This document shows, in pieces, positions 12,834 through 62,415 of a DNA stretch of 64,000 nt; positions within the stretch are counted from its first letter, which is position 1; every line of letters begins with the position of its first letter. The stretch is from the NCBI GenBank assembly GCA_041483895.1, contig JBGPGO010000001.1, forward strand, positions 416,001 through 480,000. The letters are read 5' to 3'. The DNA is from Fimbriimonadia bacterium. GTDB lineage: Bacteria > Armatimonadota > Fimbriimonadia > Fimbriimonadales > JABRVX01. The translations under genes were made by a program, and so were the position numbers. Below the pieces are notes generated by a model. That model was given only the letters and a program-made list of their open reading frames with translations. It was not told the DNA's origin and did no database searches.

Positions 12834-12904
12834 TTATCCCTTCACATTCGCAATGTGAAGGGGATCATCAGCATTTATCCCTTCATAGTCGCACTATGAA
12901 GGGT
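12834..12904. repeat. Tandem pair of covarying hairpins in the 5' UTR
   Basis: cccttcacatt-cgc-aatgtgaaggg and cccttcatagt-cgc-actatgaaggg, 41 nt apart. Confidence 0.85.
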
Positions 12905-12919
12905 CTTGAGAGGGGCGGC

Positions 12920-13939
12920 ATGATGACAAGACGATCGACTTTGGCGCTCGCGTGGCTACTCCCGGCGTTGTGCTCGGCAAGCGACGGCAGACTCTATTTT
13001 CGCAACGAGACCACGGGACAAGAAAACATCGGCGCGCTGTACGCGATCCCCGGCGACGTGATCACCCTGCGCTACAGCTACCATAGCGACACGAGTTGGG
13101 GCACGCTGCAGTTCGCGCTGGACCTCACCCAATCGTCCATCATCTCGGCAGCGGACGCGGCCAACTGGTCCACCCAGGTCCGCGCGGTGTTTCCGGCGAC
13201 GGACTACTACACGCGCTTGGTATACGGGCCGGGCGTTCTCTACGACAGCGCGCGGAAGCCCGGCGACACCACTCAGGCGCTCATCGCTTCCAACGCGCTG
13301 TACGGGCTGGTGCAGGTCTCCTACTTCAAGGCGCTATCGAAAGATGTGGACGCGACGCTGTTCCAGTTCACGGTAGCAAACGGCACGGAGACTCAGGAAC
13401 TGCATTGGCTGAACGAGGAGCGCGTAACGCAGAACGGCATCTCCACGCGCGTCATCCTGCCGGGATATCTGACGGAACCGATCGCGGATAACTTCGTACG
13501 GGTACGTCAAAACCACATCGCAGGAAGAATAGAATTTTCGGACGTTGCCGATACATTCAAACCACCCTCATCAGTGATAATGCGCATTTCGCCGACTGGA
13601 GGAACACCGTACTATCAGTGGGTCTCGCTGGACGCATATGGCGGATTCGATCTGCTGCAGCGCGCTGGCACCTGCAAGCTGTCCGTTAAGTATAGCCACT
13701 GGCTACGCCGAACGATATCGGTAGATAATACGCTTGGCGACGTTTCTGGCGCAGTCCTGAGTTTGGTCAATGGCGACGCCTTCCTTGATGGCATCGTGGA
13801 CCTAAGGGACATCAACTGGTTGTTTTTGTGGTGGATGTCTCCTGGCGCACCGTTCTCGGACCTAAATGAAGATGGGTTCACCGATCTGCTGGACCTCAGC
13901 ATCGTATTCATGAATCAGCTGTTGAAGGACGATGATTAG
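12920..13939 (+). CDS. Secreted protein with C-terminal dockerin-like domain (type A)
   Basis: Signal peptide; SHWLRR..LVNGDAFLDGIVDLRD..DLNEDGFTDLLDL; paralogue of 15011-16030. Confidence 0.85.
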   Translation: MMTRRSTLALAWLLPALCSASDGRLYFRNETTGQENIGALYAIPGDVITLRYSYHSDTSWGTLQFALDLTQSSIISAADAANWSTQVRAVFPATDYYTRLVYGPGVLYDSARKPGDTTQALIASNALYGLVQVSYFKALSKDVDATLFQFTVANGTETQELHWLNEERVTQNGISTRVILPGYLTEPIADNFVRVRQNHIAGRIEFSDVADTFKPPSSVIMRISPTGGTPYYQWVSLDAYGGFDLLQRAGTCKLSVKYSHWLRRTISVDNTLGDVSGAVLSLVNGDAFLDGIVDLRDINWLFLWWMSPGAPFSDLNEDGFTDLLDLSIVFMNQLLKDDD

Positions 13940-15014
13940 AATGAACCGCATGCTCGGTACGGTTCAGTTGGCGATGTTGGCGATCGGGATTCTGATCGTC
14001 CCGGCCCATGGTGCATACGAAGCGCGGCTATATTTCTTCAACTCGACAAGGCTCGACGCGCGCAGCGGTCAGGTGAATGCAAATGTTGGTGACGTCATTG
14101 AGGTTTGGTATTACTTCAATGACCTCGACACGATCAGTCCCCGCAACTGGGGAACGCTTCAAACAACGCTTTGCTTTGATGGCCTTTCGCTCGTATCCCG
14201 GACGGATCAGATGAACTGGAACGCATCGATCACTGCCGGAATTAAGAGCGGCGGGTCTCTGGCAGACTTCTTGACGACAGTGATGGGCAATGGGCCCTTA
14301 TACGACAATGCGTTCGATCCGACCGATATCAGCCAATTGAAAATCTGCGACAATGGTCTGTTTCTATACCTAAAGATCGACGAAATCAAACCTAGGGCCC
14401 GAAACTGGGCCATTAAGCTTTGGGAATTCACCGTCCAGCCAGAAAGCGAAGGACAGATTTTGGACTGGACGTTTGCGGGGAGAGACACTACCATCGGATT
14501 ATCGACACGAATTATCGACCAGAAGGGCGCGACCCAAAATATATCTGACAATTATTTAAAGGTGGTTGGCGGCAGAACTGTGACAACTTTTGCTGGAAAG
14601 GTGAACTTCGATCGGATAGTGAATGAGGCGTCAAAACCGGCAACAATGGAGGTCCGAGTGAGGCCGGAGGTCGGGGATGATCGCGTCATCCCGAATGTCC
14701 CGCTGACCCCGGACGGACACTTTCAGATCGAATTGCCTGCGGAACGATACCTAATCTCCTGCCGAGCGCAATCTTGGCTGCGACGGACTGCCTACGTCGA
14801 TCTGACAAGAGGGGACGTGACCGACTTTTCCATCGATCTGCCGAATGGCGACGCATTTGCGGACGGCGTTGTCGACACTAGAGATGTCAATTGGGTCTTC
14901 GTTTATTTCGGATCGCCGGGAGAGAACTACTCCGATCTGAACCGCGATGGAGAGACAAATCTGCTCGATTTGAACATCGTCTTCACGAATTACGGTCTGG
15001 TTGGTGATCCATGA
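13932..15014 (+). CDS. Secreted protein with C-terminal dockerin-like domain (type B)
   Basis: SWLRR..NGDAFADGVVDTRD..DLNRDGETNLLDL..GDP; paralogue of 16027-17073. Confidence 0.85.
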   Translation: MIRMNRMLGTVQLAMLAIGILIVPAHGAYEARLYFFNSTRLDARSGQVNANVGDVIEVWYYFNDLDTISPRNWGTLQTTLCFDGLSLVSRTDQMNWNASITAGIKSGGSLADFLTTVMGNGPLYDNAFDPTDISQLKICDNGLFLYLKIDEIKPRARNWAIKLWEFTVQPESEGQILDWTFAGRDTTIGLSTRIIDQKGATQNISDNYLKVVGGRTVTTFAGKVNFDRIVNEASKPATMEVRVRPEVGDDRVIPNVPLTPDGHFQIELPAERYLISCRAQSWLRRTAYVDLTRGDVTDFSIDLPNGDAFADGVVDTRDVNWVFVYFGSPGENYSDLNRDGETNLLDLNIVFTNYGLVGDP

Positions 15015-16030
15015 TCAGAGCGCTGATCGCATTGCTCCTGACCTCAGTAATATCGACAATGTTTGGATCTTACACGGTCCGGCTCTACTTTCGCAACGAA
15101 ACAACGGGCCAGGAGAACGCCGGGGCGCTGTTCGCTCTGCCGGGAGACAGGATGACGCTGCGCTACAGCTACCACGGCGACACAAATTGGGGCACGCTGC
15201 AGATGGCCATCGATTTATCCCAATCTAGCATTGTCTCTGCGACAGACGCCTCTCAATGGTTATCGCAAGTGAGAGACGTGTTCATGTCCGCAAATTTCTT
15301 CTCCGAAATGATTTACGGGCCGGGTGCGCTCTACGACAGTGCGCGGGAACCAAGCGACAACACCCAACCATTAGTCTCAACGAATGCGCTCTATGCCCTC
15401 GGCCAGATATCCTATAACGATCCGAATTCAAAGGACTTCGATGCGACGCTTTTCAAGTTCACGGTGGCAAGCAGTACGGAGGGCCAGGAACTGCACTGGA
15501 TCAACGAGGGACGCTGGACGCAAGATGGCGTCTCAACTCGCGTAATTCTTCCCGGCCAACAGACGCAGTTGATAACCGATAATTTCGTGCGTGTGCGGCG
15601 CAATCACATCATCGGTAAGATTGATTTTACACGCGCAGCGCCAACCTTCAAAATGCCTTCAACGATCAGCATGCGTTTCACGCCGGCAATTGGATCACAA
15701 TTTAATCAGACCGTCCATTTAGATAGCGGCGGAAATTTCGATGTTGCCCTGCGAGCTGGAGTTTATGACGTATCGGTTCAATACACTCATTGGCTCCGGC
15801 GGTCGATACTAGTGGATGCGAGTCAAGGCGATGTAACCGGCGCAACCTTCACTTTGGTAAACGGCGACGCATTTGTGGACGGACTCGTAAACCTCAAAGA
15901 TATCAATTGGATTTTCGTCTACTTCGGAACCTCGGGACAAAACTATTCCGATCTTAATCAAGATGGGACGACAGATTTATTGGATTTGAACATCGTGTTT
16001 ACGAATTTCGGACTGTCGGGAGATCCATAA
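15011..16030 (+). CDS. Secreted protein with C-terminal dockerin-like domain (type A')
   Basis: ATGA overlap with the upstream gene; RLYFRNETTGQEN shared with 12920 gene. Confidence 0.85.
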   Translation: MIRALIALLLTSVISTMFGSYTVRLYFRNETTGQENAGALFALPGDRMTLRYSYHGDTNWGTLQMAIDLSQSSIVSATDASQWLSQVRDVFMSANFFSEMIYGPGALYDSAREPSDNTQPLVSTNALYALGQISYNDPNSKDFDATLFKFTVASSTEGQELHWINEGRWTQDGVSTRVILPGQQTQLITDNFVRVRRNHIIGKIDFTRAAPTFKMPSTISMRFTPAIGSQFNQTVHLDSGGNFDVALRAGVYDVSVQYTHWLRRSILVDASQGDVTGATFTLVNGDAFVDGLVNLKDINWIFVYFGTSGQNYSDLNQDGTTDLLDLNIVFTNFGLSGDP

Positions 16031-17073
16031 TTAAAACTTTCCTCTGCTTGCTGCTGCTTTGCACGATTGCGACGATGCATGGTTCGTACAAGGTCCGACT
16101 TTATTACCGCAACGCGACGAAGAATACGCAAAATGCGGGACCCGTGGAAGCTGCACCTGGAGATGTTATCGAAGTTTGGTATTCGTTCCACAAGCTGAAC
16201 ACATCGAACCCATTCAAATGGGGAACGCTGCAGGTGACCATCTGTTTCGACGGCCTCTCGACGCTGAGCGATGGCCACATGGCGAATTTTCCCAACGCCA
16301 TTGCTCTGGCGAAGACGGTTGGTGGTCCGCCGACCGAATTTTTGTCCACCGTCACCGGCATTGGAGCACTCTACGATAATGCGATCGACCCGTCGGATTC
16401 CAATTCTCCGAAAGTTTGCAACAGGGGAGTATATGTCCTACTTGGCATCCACGGGCAAAAACCACGAGCACAAGACTGGGATGTCATGCTTTGGAGCTTC
16501 ACTGTCCAAAGTGTGACGCACGATGAGATATTGGACTGGAAATTTGACAATCGCGCTACGTCGAACGGCCTGTCCACTTGCATTTTGGACCAATGCTGTC
16601 GTGGACCGGATATGACCGACAACTATGTTCACGTGAGCCCAAATAGGAGCTTGACCGGGCATATAACATTCACTCGGCTCGCTGCAGGGGCGTTGGGACC
16701 AGATCATGCCGAAATCCGGGCGACGCCGGAGGTAGGGGATGTGATCACGCAGACCGTGTCGGTGGACGCGCGCGGCAACTTCCAGATCACGCTGCCTCCG
16801 GATCGCTACATGATCTCCGTCAGATCCGATTCCTGGCTCCGGCAGACGGGGTATGCCGACCTGACGAACGGCGATCTGTCCGGCTTCGAGATCGAGCTGC
16901 CCAACGGCGACGCGCTGCCGGACAACATGGTCGACCTGCGCGACCTGAATCTGATTTTCGTGTACTTCGGAGAGCCGGGACAACTGTTCTCCGACCTCAA
17001 CCGCGATGGCATAACAGGCCTGATCGACTTCAACATCGTGGTAACGAATTTTGGGATGAAGGGGGATCCGTAG
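16027..17073 (+). CDS. Secreted protein with C-terminal dockerin-like domain (type B'); homologous start codon is ATA
   Basis: In-frame ATA-ATT-AAA-ACT-TTC-CTC-TGC precedes the TTG at 16048 and overlaps the upstream TAA. Confidence 0.8.
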   Translation: MIKTFLCLLLLCTIATMHGSYKVRLYYRNATKNTQNAGPVEAAPGDVIEVWYSFHKLNTSNPFKWGTLQVTICFDGLSTLSDGHMANFPNAIALAKTVGGPPTEFLSTVTGIGALYDNAIDPSDSNSPKVCNRGVYVLLGIHGQKPRAQDWDVMLWSFTVQSVTHDEILDWKFDNRATSNGLSTCILDQCCRGPDMTDNYVHVSPNRSLTGHITFTRLAAGALGPDHAEIRATPEVGDVITQTVSVDARGNFQITLPPDRYMISVRSDSWLRQTGYADLTNGDLSGFEIELPNGDALPDNMVDLRDLNLIFVYFGEPGQLFSDLNRDGITGLIDFNIVVTNFGMKGDP

Positions 17074-45608: not shown

Positions 45609-46640
45609 TCAACATTCTGACAACAGACCCCATCGCAGGCCGCGGACGGAGACCCGAATTGTCTCGACTTTGAGCAGGTACATGCACCGCTCGAGGATGA
45701 GCGCGCCGGCATGGATCATCGGTCCTCTGCCGGATTCCATGCCGGGGAAGGCCTGCCGCTCGTCCGCCGAGAGTCGGCATAACACGCCGGCGTTCTTCCC
45801 TACCCATTCATAGTCCAGCTCGGCGCCATGCACCGCGTCCGGATTGAAATCCAATCCCCGGCGAATCGAGGCGAGATTGACGCCCGTTGCGCCGATAGTC
45901 ACAACCATGGAGGGCTCTATCTTGGAGGGCTCCGCTCTGTCGGAGCCGGATTTGGGAGGCGTACTTTCGGCTCCGATGGAACGGAGCCCTCCAAGGCATT
46001 CATCGATATATTTGAAGGCGCGGAAGATGGCGGCCTCGTCGCATGGACCGTAGCCGAGAACGTCTTGGATGAGACGTAGCGATCCGATGGGATGGCTGAC
46101 CGCGCTGTCGGCGGTCGAAAACTCGGTCGATGCTCCACCGATATCGACCACCGTCAATATCGGCGTATTGCCAAACGCCGGATCCTCCGCCACGGAAAGG
46201 AACCCGTATCGGGCCTCTTCTTCCCCGGTCAGAACGCGGATGCGTATCCCTTCATGCAGCAAGGGGCGCTCCAATTCGGAGCGGTTTTGCGCGCTTCTCA
46301 CCGCTTGTGTTCCCACAACCGTCACGCGATCCGCGCCATGCAAGTGTGCGGCGCGATGAAGATGAATCACGGCCTCGGCGGTGCGTCGCATGGATTCGGG
46401 CGAGAGGGTGATGGCAGGCGGCTCCGTTGGAACGGAGCCCTCCAAAGAAGAGCCCTCCAAAGAAGAGCCCTCCAGAACGGAGCCCACTAAGAGCGGCTCC
46501 GACGGAGCGGAGCCCTCCAAGAGACGGGTGATCACGCATTCTTCCCACACGCGGCGCCAAGGAGTGTCGTCCTCGCGTTCCGCCACCAAGCCGAGCACGG
46601 AGGTGGACCCGACGTCAATCACACCGGTCCGGCGAAGCAT
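45609..46640 (-). CDS. ppx: Ppx/GppA exopolyphosphatase-family protein with in-frame REP insertions
   Basis: VIDVGSTS, VGTQAVRSAQN, GEEEARY, DIGGASTE, GLRWG. Confidence 0.88.
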   Translation of the reverse strand: MLRRTGVIDVGSTSVLGLVAEREDDTPWRRVWEECVITRLLEGSAPSEPLLVGSVLEGSSLEGSSLEGSVPTEPPAITLSPESMRRTAEAVIHLHRAAHLHGADRVTVVGTQAVRSAQNRSELERPLLHEGIRIRVLTGEEEARYGFLSVAEDPAFGNTPILTVVDIGGASTEFSTADSAVSHPIGSLRLIQDVLGYGPCDEAAIFRAFKYIDECLGGLRSIGAESTPPKSGSDRAEPSKIEPSMVVTIGATGVNLASIRRGLDFNPDAVHGAELDYEWVGKNAGVLCRLSADERQAFPGMESGRGPMIHAGALILERCMYLLKVETIRVSVRGLRWGLLSEC

Positions 46641-47564: not shown

Positions 47565-48863
47565 TTACGAGGCAGCGCGACCGATGCCATAGTACTCGAA
47601 ACCCGCCTTGCTCGCCCGCGCCGGGTCATAAATGTTGCGGCCGTCGAACAGATAGGGCCGCCGGACAATGGCGCGGAGCCGCTCAAGATTGAGCTGCTTG
47701 AATTCATTCCATTCCGTAACGATGAGCACGGCGTCCGCACCCTCCGCCGCTTCGTACGCGTTGGCGCAGTAGGTGATCTCCGGATAGAGTTTGCGGAAGT
47801 TCTCCGTCGCGACCGCATCGTAGGCACGGATCTTCGCCCCGTCCGCCAGGAGCATTTTCACGATCTCGATCGATTTCGCATCGCGCAGGTCGTCCGTGTT
47901 GGGTTTGAATGCCAGTCCGAGCACGGCAATCGTCGCGCCATCGAGGGTGCCGAGGCGCTGACGCACCTTGTTCACAAACCGTATCGGCTGGTCTACGTTG
48001 ATGCGGTAGGTCTCTTCCAAAAGCTCCAGCGGATAGTCCAGTTTTCGGGCGGTGCTGATCAGGCCCAAAACATCTTTCGGGAAGCAGCTTCCGCCCCATC
48101 CCAGCCCCGCGTTTAGGAATGCGGAACCGATGCGATTATCGTAGCCCATCCCTTTGCTGACCTGCATCACGTCCGCGCCGCACTCCTCGCACAGATTGGC
48201 GATGGCGTTGATGAAGCTGATCTTCATCGCGAGGAAGCAGTTGGAGGCGTATTTGATGATTTCCGCGCTGGCAAGGTCGGTGATCAGCATCGGGCGCTCG
48301 ATCGGCGCGTACAGCTCCACCAGCTTGTTCGCGGCTTCTCGGCGAGAGGAGCCGATGACGATTCGATCTGGGCACAGCGTATCGTGGATGGCCGAGCCCT
48401 CGCGAAGGAATTCGGGATTGGAAACCACATCAAAACTGTCCGGTCTCGCCCCGCCGGCGAGCAGCAGATCGCGCACCCAATCGCCCGTTCCTACCGGCAC
48501 TGTGGATTTGTTGACGACGACGGTGTAGTGATCGATGTTCGGGCCGATCTGTTTCGCGACCGCCTCGACCTGACTGAGGTCGGGTACGCCGTCCTCGCCC
48601 GACGGGGTGCCGACCGCAATGAACACCACATCCGCCCAGCGAACGGCGTCGGCCAACTCCGTTGTGAAGACGAGCCGGTTCTCCGCCAGGCCACGCGTGA
48701 TCAGCTCGTCAATCCCCGGTTCATAGATCGGGGACTTCCCTTTTCGGAGCATGTCGATCTTCGCCGCGTCCTTATCGATGCAGCGGACTTCGTTGCCGAG
48801 GTCCGCAAAAACAACTCCGGTCACAAGACCGACATAGCCGGTGCCAACGACGCAAATATTCAT
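47565..48863 (-). CDS. ugd: UDP-glucose 6-dehydrogenase
   Basis: GTGYVG, IAVGTP, KSTVPVGT, SNPEFLREG, GGSCFPKD, GLAFKPNTDD. Confidence 0.96.
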   Translation of the reverse strand: MNICVVGTGYVGLVTGVVFADLGNEVRCIDKDAAKIDMLRKGKSPIYEPGIDELITRGLAENRLVFTTELADAVRWADVVFIAVGTPSGEDGVPDLSQVEAVAKQIGPNIDHYTVVVNKSTVPVGTGDWVRDLLLAGGARPDSFDVVSNPEFLREGSAIHDTLCPDRIVIGSSRREAANKLVELYAPIERPMLITDLASAEIIKYASNCFLAMKISFINAIANLCEECGADVMQVSKGMGYDNRIGSAFLNAGLGWGGSCFPKDVLGLISTARKLDYPLELLEETYRINVDQPIRFVNKVRQRLGTLDGATIAVLGLAFKPNTDDLRDAKSIEIVKMLLADGAKIRAYDAVATENFRKLYPEITYCANAYEAAEGADAVLIVTEWNEFKQLNLERLRAIVRRPYLFDGRNIYDPARASKAGFEYYGIGRAAS

Positions 48864-48917
48864 GGATTACTCTAGTTTTCGGCAGATTCTTGCCTGAATT
48901 GGACCCTGATGAACCCT

Positions 48918-48947
48918 TTACGGCATGGTACCGCTTACCAGGCGGCT
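48918..48947 (-). repeat. Duplicate of the rseP 3' end (copy C)
   Basis: Minus strand AGC CGC CTG GTA AGC GGT ACC ATG CCG TAA. Confidence 0.9.
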
Positions 48948-48965
48948 ATTGCCTACGAGACCGGG

Positions 48966-49724
48966 CTACCGATGAACCTTGAGCGGCGGGTGCGGTGGAC
49001 CGCCAAATGCGATGCCGCTGTATGGCGGAATACTGAGTATTTCGGATGGGTATAGCCAACGGACCTTTTTCAAAGGGACGCTCGCGGGAAGGCAGTAAAC
49101 GCGAACCTCCAGAAGGTATCGCCCAACCTGCTGGAGCGTCGCCTTGTCTTTGAGCGACAAAAGCGGCGCGAGCTTCGCAGTTGGAATCAGGCTTGCGGGA
49201 AATTCCACCTCGATCTCCGATCCCTGGACGCGCAACTTCCCGGCGGCGAGAACCTTCGCTGTATAAGATCGGCTGTCCTTTGACATCTGGCCGCGGACGA
49301 TCGCGGCCTGGTTTGGATCAAGTGACGCTGCCGAACCATAGGAACCGGATACCACGCCGACGATCTTCGTCTCCGTTTGACGATCCTTGGGCGGGAACAC
49401 GTCGCCGAGGAATATTTCGACCCAAAAGAATCCTTGCGACCCCTTCGGTATCTCCGCGCCCATCTGGAAGATGAATTTGACGGTATCGCCCTGAGAAATC
49501 AATGTTAGCACGCGCAGGTCCGCGTAAGCGGGGGCTTTGAATTCGACAGGTCCCTGATCGCTGTCCGCAGGCCAATATTCAACTTGCGCATGCGGAACGT
49601 CACAATTCCAAGAATTCTTCTTGTTTGTCTCCGCTTGCTGCTCAGGCGCCACCGAGGCGAAAGCGAGTCGTATCCCCAGAACGCCCACCACCCCAACGAC
49701 CAACGAGCGACGATAGCGCTTCAT
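48966..49724 (-). CDS. Hypothetical secreted protein (cassette 2)
   Basis: N-terminal hydrophobic segment; paralogue of 49782-50549 (AP.YADLR, GRYLLE.RVYCLPAS, IPPYSGI..GGP.HPPLK). Confidence 0.8.
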   Translation of the reverse strand: MKRYRRSLVVGVVGVLGIRLAFASVAPEQQAETNKKNSWNCDVPHAQVEYWPADSDQGPVEFKAPAYADLRVLTLISQGDTVKFIFQMGAEIPKGSQGFFWVEIFLGDVFPPKDRQTETKIVGVVSGSYGSAASLDPNQAAIVRGQMSKDSRSYTAKVLAAGKLRVQGSEIEVEFPASLIPTAKLAPLLSLKDKATLQQVGRYLLEVRVYCLPASVPLKKVRWLYPSEILSIPPYSGIAFGGPPHPPLKVHR

Positions 49725-49732
49725 TTCCCCTC

Positions 49733-49762
49733 CTACGGCATGGTACCGCTAACCAGGCGAGT
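49733..49762 (-). repeat. Duplicate of the rseP 3' end (copy B)
   Basis: Minus strand ACT CGC CTG GTT AGC GGT ACC ATG CCG TAG. Confidence 0.9.
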
Positions 49763-49781
49763 AAATAATATCCAGAGAGGG

Positions 49782-50549
49782 TTATCGCTTCGGTCCGCTT
49801 GCGTTTCGGGCCTTCAGCGGGGGATGTTCGGGACCGCCGAGCAGTATGCCGCTGTAGGGAGGAATGCAGATATCGTCGGTCCGATAGACCCAGCGGACCG
49901 AATCCGTTGGGATGCTGGCGGGCAGGCAATACACGCGCGCCTCAAGCAGGTAACGGCCCAGTTCCTTCCAATTGCCCATGCCTTTCACATTGAACAGCGA
50001 GATAAGTTTTTGCGGAGGTATTTCGGTGGCTGGGAATTCCAGCTCCACCTTTGATCCCTGAATTTGCATAGTGGCCACGCTCAGCACGCTGGCGCTATAA
50101 CTTTTCCCGTCAGGCGCGGGGCGGCCGAGGACGATGGCCGTTTGGCCTGCGTTCAAGGCAGGCTCGGATCCGTAAGAACCTAACACCACAGCGACGATTT
50201 TCTTATGCGGAGTTCGGTCCCAATAAGGAAAAACGTCGAAGAGGTCGATCTCGAACCAGAGTTGGTCCGTTGCATCTTTGGGAATGGGTGCTGCCATTTG
50301 AAGCACAAATTTGACGGATTCGCTGCTCGCGCTTACGGTGAGAATTCGTAAGTCCGCGTAGCTCGGAGCTGCCACTTCGACCGGAGCGTAATCTTTCCCC
50401 TTGGCAAGATAACTCACCCATGGGGACCCGCATCTTCGAGCCCAAGAAATATGCTGCGTGTCTCCAGGCGTTTGGATGCCGGACGAGAATAAGCGTGCGA
50501 CCGATGCCATCGCCATTAGGATTGAAAAGCTCATGACGAGGACCTCCAT
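49782..50549 (-). CDS. Hypothetical secreted protein (cassette 1)
   Basis: Paralogue of 48966-49724. Confidence 0.8.
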   Translation of the reverse strand: MEVLVMSFSILMAMASVARLFSSGIQTPGDTQHISWARRCGSPWVSYLAKGKDYAPVEVAAPSYADLRILTVSASSESVKFVLQMAAPIPKDATDQLWFEIDLFDVFPYWDRTPHKKIVAVVLGSYGSEPALNAGQTAIVLGRPAPDGKSYSASVLSVATMQIQGSKVELEFPATEIPPQKLISLFNVKGMGNWKELGRYLLEARVYCLPASIPTDSVRWVYRTDDICIPPYSGILLGGPEHPPLKARNASGPKR

Positions 50550-50676
50550 ACTGACAAGTAATAGCCGATTGACGATTCGTACGAAATCATCATTACTCAG
50601 CCTTTGTACGCAGTTTAGCGATCTCTGGGTGCCTTGTCAAGCGCGGGAGACCACAAATTCCGTATAACTCGCGCCG

Positions 50677-51747
50677 CTACGGCATGGTACCGCTAACGAG
50701 GCGGGTGATGTCCAGGGTCATGACGAGTAGGAAGATGGCGGCGAGAATGACGAGGCCGGCCGCTTGGATTCTCATCTGCGCCGCCGCCGAGAAACGCCGT
50801 CCGCCCCGCAGGAATTCCACAAAATACAGAAACAGGTGCCCGCCGTCCAGCACTGGGATCGGCAGCAGGTTGATCACGCCCAGCGATAGGCTGAGCTGGC
50901 CAGCCAGCGATAGCACCTCGGCGAATCCGCGCTGCGATGCCTGAGATGTGACGCTGACGATAGCCACGGGACCCCCGATGCTCTCAAATGCGAACTTGCT
51001 GGTGAGCGTTCCCACAAGAAGCATGATGTTCCCGCCGAATTCCGCAGTCGCCGTCGAGACCGAGCCGGCGACCCCAACGCGCTTGCGCTCCATGTCCGGC
51101 ATGCAGAAAATGCGCCCGATCTGTATCTTCTTCGGCCGCAGCGGATCGGAAATGTCGGGAACCGTGTCCTTCTCCGGCACGACAATCGTGCTGAACTGTT
51201 CCCCCTTGCGCTCCAGCGTCAATTGGATCGGCCGGTCAACGCTCATATGGATGCGCTCAGCCAGTTGATCCCACTTCGTTACAGGCTCCCCCTCGATGGC
51301 AAGGACTCGATCCCCATCGCGGATGCCCGCATTCCATGCAACCTTATCCTTTTGCACCGTGCCAAAGGTCGGGGGTTCTGTCAGCGTCATGATTCCGTAA
51401 GTCGTGCCGACGACGATGAAGAGTATGTATCCGAGGAGAAGGCTCATGAAAGGCCCGGCAAGAATGACGATCGCGCGCTTGAATAGCGGCGCATCCTGGA
51501 ACGCCCGTTCTTCCGGAGCGTAGTCCCCTGGCGCCATCCCGTGTATGGCCACGAACCCGCCGATCGGCCATGGACCGACGCTGAACTCGGTATCCCCCCA
51601 CTGCCCAAGCCGGATGAATGATTTGCCAAAGCCGACCTGGAACCTGTCCGCGCGCACATTGGCCCAGCGGGCAGCGAAAAAGTGCCCTAGCTCGTGAACG
51701 ATGACGAGCAGGAAGAATATGAATAGGACGTTGATTACTGTAAGCAA
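50677..51747 (-). CDS. rseP: RseP-like site-2 (M50) metalloprotease with PDZ domain
   Basis: HELGH, AGPFMS, GIRDGDRV, NLLPIPVLDGG; follows dxr. Confidence 0.94.
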   Translation of the reverse strand: MLTVINVLFIFFLLVIVHELGHFFAARWANVRADRFQVGFGKSFIRLGQWGDTEFSVGPWPIGGFVAIHGMAPGDYAPEERAFQDAPLFKRAIVILAGPFMSLLLGYILFIVVGTTYGIMTLTEPPTFGTVQKDKVAWNAGIRDGDRVLAIEGEPVTKWDQLAERIHMSVDRPIQLTLERKGEQFSTIVVPEKDTVPDISDPLRPKKIQIGRIFCMPDMERKRVGVAGSVSTATAEFGGNIMLLVGTLTSKFAFESIGGPVAIVSVTSQASQRGFAEVLSLAGQLSLSLGVINLLPIPVLDGGHLFLYFVEFLRGGRRFSAAAQMRIQAAGLVILAAIFLLVMTLDITRLVSGTMP

Positions 51748-52886
51748 GCGCCCACCGTTTCCGTTTTTGCTTTGGCCGCGTCTCGCGCCCATATGTCAGC
51801 GGCAATGACCGCCTCCAGTGTAGCTTCCACAGGCGGATGGTCGGCCATGACTGATTCTAGAATACGGGGAATGTCCATGAATGTTATCTTTCCATCTAAG
51901 AACATCGGTACCAACGCCTCATTCGCTCCGTTCAATACCGCCGGCATCGTACCTCCGGCCTCCAATGCCTCGTAGGCAAGGCGGAGACACGGGAAAGCGT
52001 TTTCGTCTACAGGCTCGAGCGATAGGCTGTAAGATTTGCTGAAATCAAATCTCTCCAGACCGGTATCTTGCCTTTCCGGATGGAGCAAGGCCACTTGGAT
52101 CGGCATCCGCATGTCCGGGTAGCCAAGCTGAGCCAACATCGACCCATCGACGAATTGGACGATGGAGTGCAGGATGCTTTGCGGGTGGACGACAACTTCG
52201 ATCTTCTCCGGCGGGAGGCCAAAAAGCCAATGCGCTTCGATCACTTCCAGTCCCTTGTTCATCAGCGTGGCCGAATCGATGGTGATTTTTGGTCCCATGC
52301 GCCATGTGGGATGGGCCAGCGCCATGTCGGGAGTCACGGTTGCCAGTTGGTCTCGCGTCCAGCCGCGGAACGGTCCGCCGGAGGCAGTCAGAATGACCTG
52401 ATCAAGATTGTCCCGGCCCCGTCCATCGAGGCATTGGAAGATCGCGCTATGCTCGCTGTCGATCGGCAGAAGCTGGTCTTGGCGCGTGATTGCTCGGGTC
52501 ACGGCCTGGCCGGCGGCGACCAGCACCTCTTTGCTGGCGAGGGCGATGGTCTTTCCTCTTTGCAAAGCAATCAGGGTCGGCTTCAGTCCAATCATGCCGG
52601 AAACGCTGACGACGAGCATGTCGTAATCGGCTTCTCCCGCCATCTCGGCCATCGCGTCGGGTCCCACCAGAGCGCGGCAACCATCCGGCAGACCGTCGAG
52701 CGTAGCGCCCTGAGTCAAAGCCGCATAGGAAGCGCGCCATTTTCGAGCCTGCTCCGCCACGAGATCGGCATTCCGCGCGGCCGCCAATCCGACTACTTCA
52801 ATCTGTCCCCCCAGGCGCTCGCATACGTCGAGGACCTGGCGGCCAATCGAACCCGTTGATCCGAGCAACAGGATGCGCTTAGCCAC
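51735..52886 (-). CDS. dxr: 1-deoxy-D-xylulose-5-phosphate reductoisomerase
   Basis: LGSTGSIG, PIDSEHSAIFQ, LTASGGPF, HPTWRMGPKITIDSATLMNKGLEVIEA. Confidence 0.97.
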   Translation of the reverse strand: MAKRILLLGSTGSIGRQVLDVCERLGGQIEVVGLAAARNADLVAEQARKWRASYAALTQGATLDGLPDGCRALVGPDAMAEMAGEADYDMLVVSVSGMIGLKPTLIALQRGKTIALASKEVLVAAGQAVTRAITRQDQLLPIDSEHSAIFQCLDGRGRDNLDQVILTASGGPFRGWTRDQLATVTPDMALAHPTWRMGPKITIDSATLMNKGLEVIEAHWLFGLPPEKIEVVVHPQSILHSIVQFVDGSMLAQLGYPDMRMPIQVALLHPERQDTGLERFDFSKSYSLSLEPVDENAFPCLRLAYEALEAGGTMPAVLNGANEALVPMFLDGKITFMDIPRILESVMADHPPVEATLEAVIAADIWARDAAKAKTETVGACLQ

Positions 52887-59481: not shown

Positions 59482-62415
59482 ATGCGTAATCTGCTGGCCC
59501 TGGCGGTCGGTGTATCCGCCATGGCGTCTGCGTTGGCGTTGCCGAGAGCAGCCGCCATCCTCGATTTTCACAAGATCAATCCAAATGCCAAGTTCTACAT
59601 GGACGGCGCAAGCATCCGCCGGGTTTATGGTCCGGCCTTTGCAACAGGCATCAACGCCGAGGATACTGCCATTCGGTTCCTGAAGAGTTATAGCTCCATG
59701 TTCGGCGTTGCCGCCGTTGATTTGCATCCCACGCTGACCACGGACCTCATGCGAGGCAAGTTCACGATGATCCGATACGAGCAGCGTTACTACGGCATTC
59801 CCGTTCATGGCGCCTATCTGACTCTGGTGATGCGGACCGATGCGAACAACAGCATGGTGCTCGCTTCCAACTATCTCAAGCCGATCGCCGGCAGCGTGCC
59901 GCCTCCCTATGCGGTGTCTTCCGATGATGTCCTTACTCGTTGGCGTCCCTGGTTCGTCGACTTCACATTTTCGACTCCAGCACCGGTCGTCTACATTGAA
60001 GACAATGGGCGCGCGAAGTTCGGATATCAATTCACGGTCAGAAACACCAACGCGGTTTATCCCGAGAAGTATCTCGTAATCGTCGATGGTTCCGACCCGA
60101 AAGCCTCGATCCTGTTCCAAGAATCGCGCATCTATGATGATGATGTTTCCGGATCTGTTCAGGGTTGGGCGACTCCGGGCGACCTGCCGGATGTTGCGAC
60201 CAACCTGCCGACATTGCAGCCCATTGATGGCATGAGGGTAAAAGTTGCGGGCGGCAACACCGGCCAATCCGATCTAAGTGGCCTGTTCACCATCGTGAAC
60301 GCAGGCAGCTCCCCGGTGGACGTCAGCGCAAATGTCACGGGTCCCGGATCGACGGTCGGCGGACAATGGGTCTGGATTGATGACCAGCAGGGCGTCGAAA
60401 TGTCGCTTTCCCAAAACGTTACTCCTCCGGGACCGGCGGACTTCATCTTCAATTCCAGTCCGACCCAATTCACCACGGCCCAGATAAACGCATTCATCTG
60501 GGTGCCGAGAACTCACAACATGGTGAAAGCAACTGATCCAACATACCCAGGCATCGACGTCCAAATGCGTGCGAACGTGAACTTGACTAGTACCTGCAAC
60601 GCTTTTTATGACGGCGCGTCGGTCAACTTTTATAACGCGGGCGGCGGATGTCCGAATACGGCCTATTCCACGGTCATGGCCCACGAATACGGTCATCACA
60701 TCGTGGCGAGTGGACACGCGAATCCATCGGGAGACTTCCATGAAGGCGTCGCCGATGTTACCGCGGAGCTGCTGATCGACAGCGACTGTCTTGGTCGTGG
60801 ATTCCAGGGAGGTACGGGGTGCCTTCGCAGTGGCTACAACAGCGTCAAATACCCTTGCAGCGGTGAAGTGCACACCTGCGGAGAGGTCATGTCTGGGGCA
60901 TATTGGTTGACCCGCGACCAGATGAAAATCACGGAACCCGTCAACTATCTCAGCATCATGCGCGACCTCTATGTATTCATGATCAAGATGTCGCCGACTA
61001 TCGATCCTAGTATTACTGTCGACGTTCTCACATTGGACGACGACAACGGCGATATCGACGATGGAACGCCGCACTACAATGAAATCGCCGCTGGGTTCGG
61101 TGCAAAGAACCTCACGGCGCCGCCATTGGTCTATCTGGACTTTACCTATCCCGACGGCAAGCCGGAGCTCGTCAGTCCCGCAGGCGGAACCCGAATGCGA
61201 GTTATCGTGTCGGGCCACGTCAAGACGCCTCAGCCGGGCACCGGCAAACTGTATTACAGCACCGGCGGATCCTACACCGCGATCCCAATGGAGGAGGTCT
61301 CCTCGAATGTCTACGACGCCGTCTTCCCATCGCTGCCGTGCGGATCAACGGTAAAGTACTACGTCAATGCCCAGACGACCGATGCGACAGAGGCATTCGA
61401 CCCAACCAACGCCCCGACCGGCTATTACAGGACGATCAGCGCTTACGGATTGACGCCCTACTTCGACGACAACTTTGAAACCGATCAAGGTTGGACTGTA
61501 TCCAATAGCGGCGCCACCACAGGCATCTGGGCTCGCGGTACTCCGGCGGGAGGAGGAGCGCGAGGCGACAATCCGACGGACTACAACGGTTCGGGCCAAT
61601 GCTATTGCACGGACCCGGCAGCCGGCGATACCGACGTTGACGGCGGGACGACTCGCCTGATTTCGCCGACCTTTAATCTCGCTGGTACCAATGCGATCAT
61701 CAGCTACGCCCGCTGGTACTCCAACAGTTTTGGTGGCGACCCGCATAACGACACCATGACGGTTCAAATAACCAACAACGGTACCCTTTGGACTACTGTG
61801 GAGACTGTCGGCCCGGTCAATCAGGCAGACGGCGGTTGGTTCACCAATTCGTTCAAAGTGAGCGATTACATCACCCCTTCGGCAACGATAAAAGTGAGAT
61901 TCAATGCTTCCGATCTCGGCTCAGGCTCGGTTGTTGAGGCTGCCGTCGACGCTTTCAAGGTTGAAACTTTGAATTGCACACCGTCGAACAGCCTGTTCGG
62001 TCATATCGATCTCGATCTGCTCTCTGCCTCGCCATCCGGCCAGGCCGTGACGATCGAGTTCCGGACACCGAACACCGCCACCGTAGTTGCCAGCTATCCG
62101 GTCGTCCTCGACAGTTTGGGAAACTACAACATCCCGTCCGTTGTCGGTGGCACATACGACATCGCCGCCAAGGGTGCGAATTGGCTGCGTCAGAAGCTGC
62201 TGTCTCAGACCGTTAGCGGCACGACTGAGGCGAACTTCGCGCTGATCAACGGAGACGCGGATCCAAACAATGCGGTGGATCTTGGTGACATGAACAAGGT
62301 GTTCATAAACTTTGCAAACCCAGGCGGCGACGGGGACATCAATTGGGATGGAATCGTCGGCGTGGAGGATCTGTCGATCATCTTCATTGAGTTTGGAGCG
62401 AACGGCGATTCCTAG
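59482..62415 (+). CDS. Secreted M4/M36-like zinc metallopeptidase with beta-sandwich and dockerin-like domains
   Basis: Signal peptide, FTP-like propeptide (RYEQRYYGIPV), CNAFYDG, HEYGH, EGVAD, C-terminal NWLR..NGDADPNNAVDLGD..DINWDG. Confidence 0.88.
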   Translation: MRNLLALAVGVSAMASALALPRAAAILDFHKINPNAKFYMDGASIRRVYGPAFATGINAEDTAIRFLKSYSSMFGVAAVDLHPTLTTDLMRGKFTMIRYEQRYYGIPVHGAYLTLVMRTDANNSMVLASNYLKPIAGSVPPPYAVSSDDVLTRWRPWFVDFTFSTPAPVVYIEDNGRAKFGYQFTVRNTNAVYPEKYLVIVDGSDPKASILFQESRIYDDDVSGSVQGWATPGDLPDVATNLPTLQPIDGMRVKVAGGNTGQSDLSGLFTIVNAGSSPVDVSANVTGPGSTVGGQWVWIDDQQGVEMSLSQNVTPPGPADFIFNSSPTQFTTAQINAFIWVPRTHNMVKATDPTYPGIDVQMRANVNLTSTCNAFYDGASVNFYNAGGGCPNTAYSTVMAHEYGHHIVASGHANPSGDFHEGVADVTAELLIDSDCLGRGFQGGTGCLRSGYNSVKYPCSGEVHTCGEVMSGAYWLTRDQMKITEPVNYLSIMRDLYVFMIKMSPTIDPSITVDVLTLDDDNGDIDDGTPHYNEIAAGFGAKNLTAPPLVYLDFTYPDGKPELVSPAGGTRMRVIVSGHVKTPQPGTGKLYYSTGGSYTAIPMEEVSSNVYDAVFPSLPCGSTVKYYVNAQTTDATEAFDPTNAPTGYYRTISAYGLTPYFDDNFETDQGWTVSNSGATTGIWARGTPAGGGARGDNPTDYNGSGQCYCTDPAAGDTDVDGGTTRLISPTFNLAGTNAIISYARWYSNSFGGDPHNDTMTVQITNNGTLWTTVETVGPVNQADGGWFTNSFKVSDYITPSATIKVRFNASDLGSGSVVEAAVDAFKVETLNCTPSNSLFGHIDLDLLSASPSGQAVTIEFRTPNTATVVASYPVVLDSLGNYNIPSVVGGTYDIAAKGANWLRQKLLSQTVSGTTEANFALINGDADPNNAVDLGDMNKVFINFANPGGDGDINWDGIVGVEDLSIIFIEFGANGDS

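Follow-up and report, generated by a model that had tools for sequence, protein, structure and literature searches.

How did the end of a single gene come to stand three times in a row, with one further gene in each gap between the copies? This question is raised by rseP in a 64,000-nucleotide (nt) stretch of a Fimbriimonadia bacterium (GenBank assembly GCA_041483895.1, contig JBGPGO010000001.1, positions 416,001 to 480,000), called the window in the following. The source genome (3.95 Mb, 95% complete) is referred to as G000, its contigs as C1, C2 and so on, and two relatives of the same family and another genus as G001 and G002. On the minus strand the genes follow in the order dxr, rseP, gene A, gene B and ugd. 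The three copies of the rseP end are named T1, T2 and T3, and A and B lie between them. Our preferred answer, to which we give somewhat better than even chances, is that two one-gene modules without an integrase accreted at an attachment site in the rseP 3' end, in the manner of cis-mobilizable elements (CIMEs), with a recombinase that acted in trans or was lost.

A repeat search of the window placed the three direct copies at 50677-50706, 49733-49762 and 48918-48947, confirming a preliminary description made from the letters of this DNA. The conserved part of the repeat is 27 nt long and encodes RLVSGTMP*; in T1 it reads CGC CTC GTT AGC GGT ACC ATG CCG TAG. T2 differs from T1 at one position (CTG for CTC; 26/27 identical) and T3 at three (CTG, GTA and TAA; 24/27 identical). 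Within this block every difference lies at a third codon position, and the earlier statement that the copies differ only synonymously across RLVSGTMP* holds; at the tenth codon, outside the block (ACC/ACT/AGC), the T3 change is non-synonymous. An invariant 17-nt core, an imperfect palindrome (CGGTA-CCA-TGCCG) that holds the hexamer TACCAT, occurs exactly three times in the 3.95-Mb genome. The search for further copies proposed in the preliminary description found this core nowhere else in G000 within 2 mismatches; the next best matches genome-wide have 3 mismatches to the core and 7 to the 27-mer. Of 228 genomes of the class, G000 alone carries the 27-nt pattern. The rseP gene itself is intact and ends at 50677, so the target gene is left whole in an arrangement of direct 27-nt repeats. 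Contigs from four public sediment runs bridge T3 in all four, T2 in three and T1 in two, without a single difference; as all three copies are bridged in this way, the structure is no assembly artefact. The run that covers the locus best may come from the source sample itself, and gaps in the contig cover carry no weight.

Each interval contains a single open reading frame (ORF), with 944 bp from T1 to T2 and 815 bp from T2 to T3. As previously described, these are two paralogous genes for proteins of about 250 amino acids (aa), one per interval; their identity is 47% over 240 aa and about 60% in the DNA. The modules are collinear at their right ends, where a stop codon is followed by a spacer of 22 or 21 nt and then by the tail. 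The two spacers are identical at 11/21 positions with one gap (shuffle p 0.017). The left ends are unlike, as A has a 142-nt leader and B begins 8 nt after T2, so that module B comprises merely 56 non-coding bases. The TAG of T2 passes directly into the ribosome site of gene B, whose ATG comes 8 nt later, and T3 follows the gene B stop in frame, the 21-nt spacer keeping that frame. From repeat to start codon the distances are 142, 8 and 54 nt for A, B and ugd. An LDI remnant noted earlier upstream of T2 is present (7/9 nt, shuffle p 0.015), but is shifted by 4 nt relative to the register of the tail. This stretch suggests that the duplicated piece was once longer and has decayed outside the 27-nt block.

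The situation before the insertion can be approached through the relatives. G000 is the sole genome of its genus in this comparison, and its RseP is 54% identical to those of G001 and G002. In both of these same-family genomes ugd begins 124-125 nt after rseP with nothing between, the gene in this place being 76-77% identical to G000 ugd, and each carries one copy of its own, different rseP tail (GRMIRGETP*). The 54 nt after T3 align to the rseP-ugd spacer of the relatives, a score reached by 0 of 500 shuffles for each relative. The DNA after T1 or T2 showed no match to this spacer, nor did the A leader match it significantly (p 0.34 and 0.90). Since the DNA after T3 matches the ancestral spacer, T3 is the end joined to the ancestral flank. 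By this homology, an insertion at the rseP 3' end has displaced the old tail downstream, which supports the earlier proposal of an insertion with a displaced end. An empty allele as expected for CIME accretion is thus seen in G001 and G002, though in another genus and with another tail. Separately, the 15 nt at 48869-48883 end in TAGAGT, 5 nt before the ugd ATG, which may be the -10 site of a transcript without a leader.

The ages of cargo and tails stand in clear contrast. A and B agree at 19 of 65 fourfold-degenerate sites, which means saturation, whereas T2 and T3, both now non-coding, are identical at 25/27 positions. A likeness of this kind has a probability of about 1e-11 at the fourfold rate and of 2e-4 at the 60% identity of the whole genes. 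A single ancient tandem duplication with idle tails, the scenario that the preliminary description had set against its own reading, is ruled out by this contrast between saturated genes and near-identical tails. Homology between the modules extends as far as the tail, which has therefore been part of the unit since A and B split. Judged from these alignments, the tails are far younger or more constrained than the divergence of the genes, which leaves two options: constraint on the tails at the DNA level, or their renewal through recombination with rseP. Both spare tails match the rseP end of G000, and the RseP end is not conserved between the genera.

The preliminary description had gone further and held that each copy was once under coding selection. 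This gains little from the two T3-private synonymous changes (p about 0.06, the expected synonymous share among all single changes in the tail being 25%), one of which is the last base of the repeat. Regarding the third tail difference, CTC is private to the working rseP, which is constrained anyway, and T2 has no private change. A constraint at the DNA level on a recombination core explains the conservation of the tails equally well.

In the accretion that we favour, the last 27 nt of rseP would be the attachment site, and the unit would consist of a gene, a spacer of 21-22 nt and a copy of the rseP end. Related modules would have recombined in successively, B first and A later, each giving rseP a working end and pushing the earlier end downstream, to yield rseP-T1-A-T2-B-T3-ugd. 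As is seen when CIMEs accrete, the recombinase would have acted in trans or have come from a helper or parent element that has since disappeared. Two positions of the crossover would fit. If it lies at the 5' edge of the block, every tail has served as the working end at some time; if it lies within the invariant 17-nt core, or just ahead of it, only the right half was exchanged. Three variable sites are too few to separate these two positions. The number and order of the events, the site-specific nature of the catalysis and the place of the crossover are inferred.

As in CIMEs, no recombinase or conjugation gene lies inside either unit, each having one ORF. Profile searches for tyrosine and serine recombinases bore out the earlier statement that the window has no integrase, and found none within the units. 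Several results weigh against the accretion reading. A cognate recombinase was not found in G000: of 10 tyrosine and 4 serine matches, none could be linked to the rseP site. The tyrosine matches comprise XerC/D, two integrases beside tRNA-Asn and tRNA-Arg, and a paralog family beside a different palindrome; the serine recombinases are at least 250 kb from the locus or on other contigs. The 56 non-coding bases of module B leave little room for arm sites, which lambda-type integrases need, and G000 also builds ordinary tandem paralog arrays. In the IMG/VR database, the tail and the cargo gave 0 matches each. Of 16 joints in contigs from 4 of 21 public runs, at a depth of about 3-7, the 15 inspected include no empty site and no circle at the tails; contigs drop rare variants. 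No RNA data set was among the runs listed. Of 74 other rseP loci, one showed any match downstream, a lone 17-mer at a distance of 15 kb, taken as chance. These loci comprise 45 of 80 metagenome loci, 27 of 28 from relatives, and G001 and G002, those without the C terminus or with less than 1.5 kb downstream being excluded; the window locus itself falls outside this filter, so that the test has no positive control, and a similar test did recover T2. The matches listed by the metagenome RseP search were all distant relatives (27-44% identical), none of them a congeneric locus. As a whole, the 227 other class genomes, IMG/VR and the 74 loci contained no integrative and conjugative element (ICE) or integrative and mobilizable element (IME) using the rseP site. 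The hotspot first proposed was thus not borne out, with no such joints in these contigs and no clear tail copy at the 74 other rseP loci.

A scan of gene ends in G000 gave one other non-dispersed case besides rseP. At C6:215570-221937, the last 29 nt of a nuoF-like gene, named by likeness to TIGR01959 matches in G001 and G002, recur 6,339 bp downstream. The copies encode APMVPALV* and APMVPVLV*, one non-synonymous change apart, and the stop of the displaced copy overlaps that of a convergent 605-aa gene. The islet holds three genes on the other strand (LuxR-like, a 585-aa protein and a 1061-aa subtilisin-like protease, named from translations), among which the tyrosine and serine recombinase search had no match. 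In G001 and G002 other genes follow nuoF. By counts alone the scan showed no excess, with 6 matches at gene ends versus 0-23 at shifted positions; the shifted-position matches printed, and 3 of the 6 at gene ends, look like dispersed repeats. The nuoF repeat shares 9/10 nt with the rseP core in opposite orientation, a likeness that was found after the fact, has a chance of about 2% and serves as a lead only. A more far-reaching version of the accretion, in which a long-lived family of minimal one-gene cassettes, as opposed to decayed ICE remnants, circulates in the lineage and docks in an integron-like manner at the last nine rseP codons through a host recombinase in trans, the same enzyme perhaps acting at nuoF, seems quite improbable to us.

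Could the array have been built without a dedicated recombinase? Here an old insertion would have left T-X-T, after which the 27-nt repeats would recombine (by RecA or slippage) or another X allele would be captured from a sister strain with the help of homology, so that a second module is stacked and the tails are refreshed. We regard this as possible, if doubtful. That no cognate integrase was found in G000 speaks for it, as do the very short gene-proximal arms, 8 nt for module B and 3 nt for the nuoF islet, and the lack of a special single-stranded DNA (ssDNA) structure at the sites (z between +1.1 and -1.6). However, in RecA-type stacking loss should outrun gain, the spare tails must outlast the entire A/B divergence, and the origin of the first duplicated tail, with a spacer fixed at 21-22 nt, stays unexplained; 27 nt is also close to the lower limit for RecA. 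The tails could instead owe their conservation to regulation, with one insertion followed by an ancient tandem duplication and the 27-mer kept as a cis-regulatory site before A, B and ugd. The collinear homology of the modules would agree with this, as would the overlap of T2 with the ribosome site of B 8 nt ahead of the gene, the palindromic core with its TACCAT hexamer, the long tandem paralog arrays of G000 and the same arrangement in all contigs compared. What makes it unlikely is that a regulatory site need not keep the exact rseP frame to the stop, and that the genome has no further core copy within 2 mismatches. Moreover, ugd of the relatives lacks the motif after rseP and is preceded by a different shared 15-nt element, found also in G000, while A has its own promoter-like site and the start-codon distances differ.

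The in-frame position of T3 behind the TAG of B, and of the LDI codons behind the TAA of A, could mean that stop readthrough extends the cargo protein by the tail, which would then form its C terminus and be kept under coding selection. We consider this very improbable, given that T2 is 1 nt out of frame with A, with the same letters in contigs of three runs, that P0003, a homolog of the cargo in G001, ends where A and B end, and that TAG is the rseP stop in G000, G001 and G002. Hardly more credible are integron cassettes with attC sites or Xer/dif modules, even if one ORF per unit and a very short non-coding part would suit them and a 7-mer containing the stop of A is complementary at 6/7 positions to the GTT-bearing 7-mer of T2. 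This paired stretch spans 41 nt only, and T3 has GTA for GTT. In the case of attC, there is no stable hairpin on either strand, and ssDNA folding was no better than for shuffles (18 folds). An integron integrase was not recognised among the tyrosine matches of the 95% complete genome: two of the ten were scanned and are XerC/XerD-like, below the TIGR02249 cut-off, and the rest were judged from their translations. In the case of Xer/dif, a candidate dif at C2:25.7 kb, found with a short dif motif, and the C4/C7 palindromes are unlike the rseP repeat.

Regarding the cargo, profile scans assigned A and B to no Pfam or NCBIfam family. The preliminary description called them secreted from sequence only, which is clear for B and weaker for A (hydropathy 2.9 and 2.1). 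In the ESM Atlas, Glucodextran_C clusters came top for both B and P0003 (0.95 and 0.94), the recognition of B falling short of the reliable range. The best structural match of the B model was 1ulv_A (Z 7.0, root-mean-square deviation 2.9, 110 residues), and a Z under 8 may reflect a common fold only, so that the DOMON/glucodextranase likeness is a lead and not an assignment. Compared with the glucodextranase C-terminal or DOMON-like beta-sandwich (PF09985; PDB 1ULV), the cargo is thus alike in the Atlas and in this match, and unlike in that it has no Pfam hit, a weak model (mean predicted local distance difference test score of 51 for B) and no Foldseek match at E 0.001 or better with the B model. 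A and B are probably exported beta-sandwich binding proteins of the cell surface. We infer that both are co-transcribed from the A leader, where a promoter-like TTGACA-17-TAAACT lies at 50640-50612; one such site was found versus 1.1 expected by chance, which makes it a lead only.

The cargo family is patchy, being present in 2 of 228 class genomes, with P0003 as the one outside homolog among 1.84 billion representatives; in a 401-genome sample of the phylum it was found in G000 alone. P0003 is 24% identical, ends at the same position as A and B, and stands in another context near a contig start. No repeat frames it, though the contig starts about 1 kb upstream. A homolog search with B recovered B alone, its 268 pattern matches in metagenome contigs gave 0 confirmed cases, and an alignment of B and P0003 found no further members among 8000 scored candidates. 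With P0003 as the query, genome contigs contained a single match, of 40 residues in an actinomycete. At its own locus (G001:C62, 11-1864), the N terminus of P0003 resembles that of a lipoprotein, and immediately ahead of the gene are two overlapping ORFs of 239 and 105 aa, perhaps a single gene with a frameshift; the ORF upstream was tried as a paralog and was not detectable as such (probability 0.3).

Features of the rseP-ugd region (window coordinates, all on the minus strand)
Feature	Position	Length or product	Remarks
rseP	50677..51792	M50 peptidase with PDZ	target gene; Pfam PF02163 (E 1e-50) and PDZ
T1	50677..50703	27 nt	working rseP end, attL-like; invariant core 50678-50694
Module A leader	50535..50676		GGAGG ribosome site
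Gene A	49782..50534	250 aa	from likely start (255 aa from 50549)
Module A spacer	49760..49781	22 nt	LDI-like remnant at 49767-49775
T2	49733..49759		module junction, copy of rseP end
Gene B	48966..49724	252 aa	signal-peptide-like N terminus
Module B spacer	48945..48965	21 nt
T3	48918..48944		most distal copy, attR-like; putative displaced original rseP end
Ancestral rseP-ugd spacer	48864..48917		15 nt at 48869-48883 identical in G001 and G002 just before ugd
ugd	47565..48863	UDP-glucose dehydrogenase	right flank; Pfam

The rseP gene sits in a tsf-pyrH-frr-uppS-dxr-rseP run, where dxr is assigned by Pfam and the genes upstream are named from translations. The GC content of the modules (0.51-0.585) is slightly under that of the flanks, and GC at third codon positions is 0.62-0.65 in A and B versus 0.67-0.77 in eight neighbour genes; this difference, like the patchy occurrence of the cargo, we count in favour of accretion. 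An Rfam scan of the window gave 0 matches. Elsewhere in the window, four tandem paralogs of about 340-360 aa with the same type of C-terminal tail (...NFGLSGDP*) lie at 12896-17073, and a Ppx/GppA-like ORF, named from its translation, contains in-frame repeats of 15-28 nt at 46418-46524 (VLEGSSLEGSSLEGS). At least 12 tandem paralogs of about 300-330 aa, with signal-like N termini and ends of ...ILCK* or similar, are found at C21:35335-47190. Among the recombinases of G000, one tyrosine family has six near-identical copies or fragments on C2, C4, C6, C7 and C11, and the three copies whose leaders were printed share a palindrome-bearing leader. Two adjacent large serine recombinases (open frames of 707 and 519 aa) lie by tRNA-Ala and tRNA-Ile at C1:202760-206408. 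At C7:34107-34182, tRNA-Asn is followed by an integrase, and a 45-nt copy of the tRNA 3' end stands inverted 27 kb away at 61526-61570, which suggests an inversion inside this island.

If accretion is the right reading, the list of protein genes whose ends take up insertions would grow by rseP, and probably by nuoF, in a phylum that has been little studied. The size of a unit can then be as small as one gene with 56 non-coding bases. The contrast of saturated cargo and near-identical tails would also date the process, with units long coupled to the host tail. If a trans-acting recombinase exists, the locus would represent a compact gene-capture system and possibly an integration tool.

How does this arrangement compare with known systems? 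Two studies (PMC5704250, PMC7563491) describe accretion of CIMEs, ICEs and IMEs at gene 3' ends, with direct repeats of 8-60 bp and integrase-less CIMEs left behind, and list fda, rpsI, rpmG and rplL as protein-gene targets in streptococci. In the literature searched, which includes few subscription papers and leaves out supplements with any attB tables that may name rseP, we found no description of this gene as an integration site. Like streptococcal CIMEs, the rseP locus has tandem units, short direct repeats of a housekeeping 3' end and cargo only, with no recombinase or transfer genes. Unlike them, its units are 815 and 944 bp long versus 1.2-13 kb for cargo-bearing CIMEs in Streptococcus salivarius, both carry paralogs of one gene, and neither in tandem with them nor in the relatives was an ICE or IME found.

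Paralogous cargo is likewise seen in the Dehalococcoides ssrA islands (PMC3146451). There the cargo is the rdhA family, and the islands also form tandem units with target-end copies of about 20 bp, some of them without integration modules and proposed to be CIMEs. They differ in that the target is the transfer-messenger RNA gene, many units have a DsiB serine integrase module and the islands are strain-variable. Salmonella genomic island 1 (PMC2297512) offers a third comparison: its att site lies in the last 18 bp of thdF/trmE, hence in the last codons as in rseP, attP and attB differ at 2 positions, and tandem arrays occur. In that case, by contrast, the island is large, has its own tyrosine integrase, and the arrays are copies of one element. 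Altogether, our analysis suggests that the rseP locus works like CIME accretion, with a putative descent from an ICE or IME and a putative function of the rseP end as attachment site.

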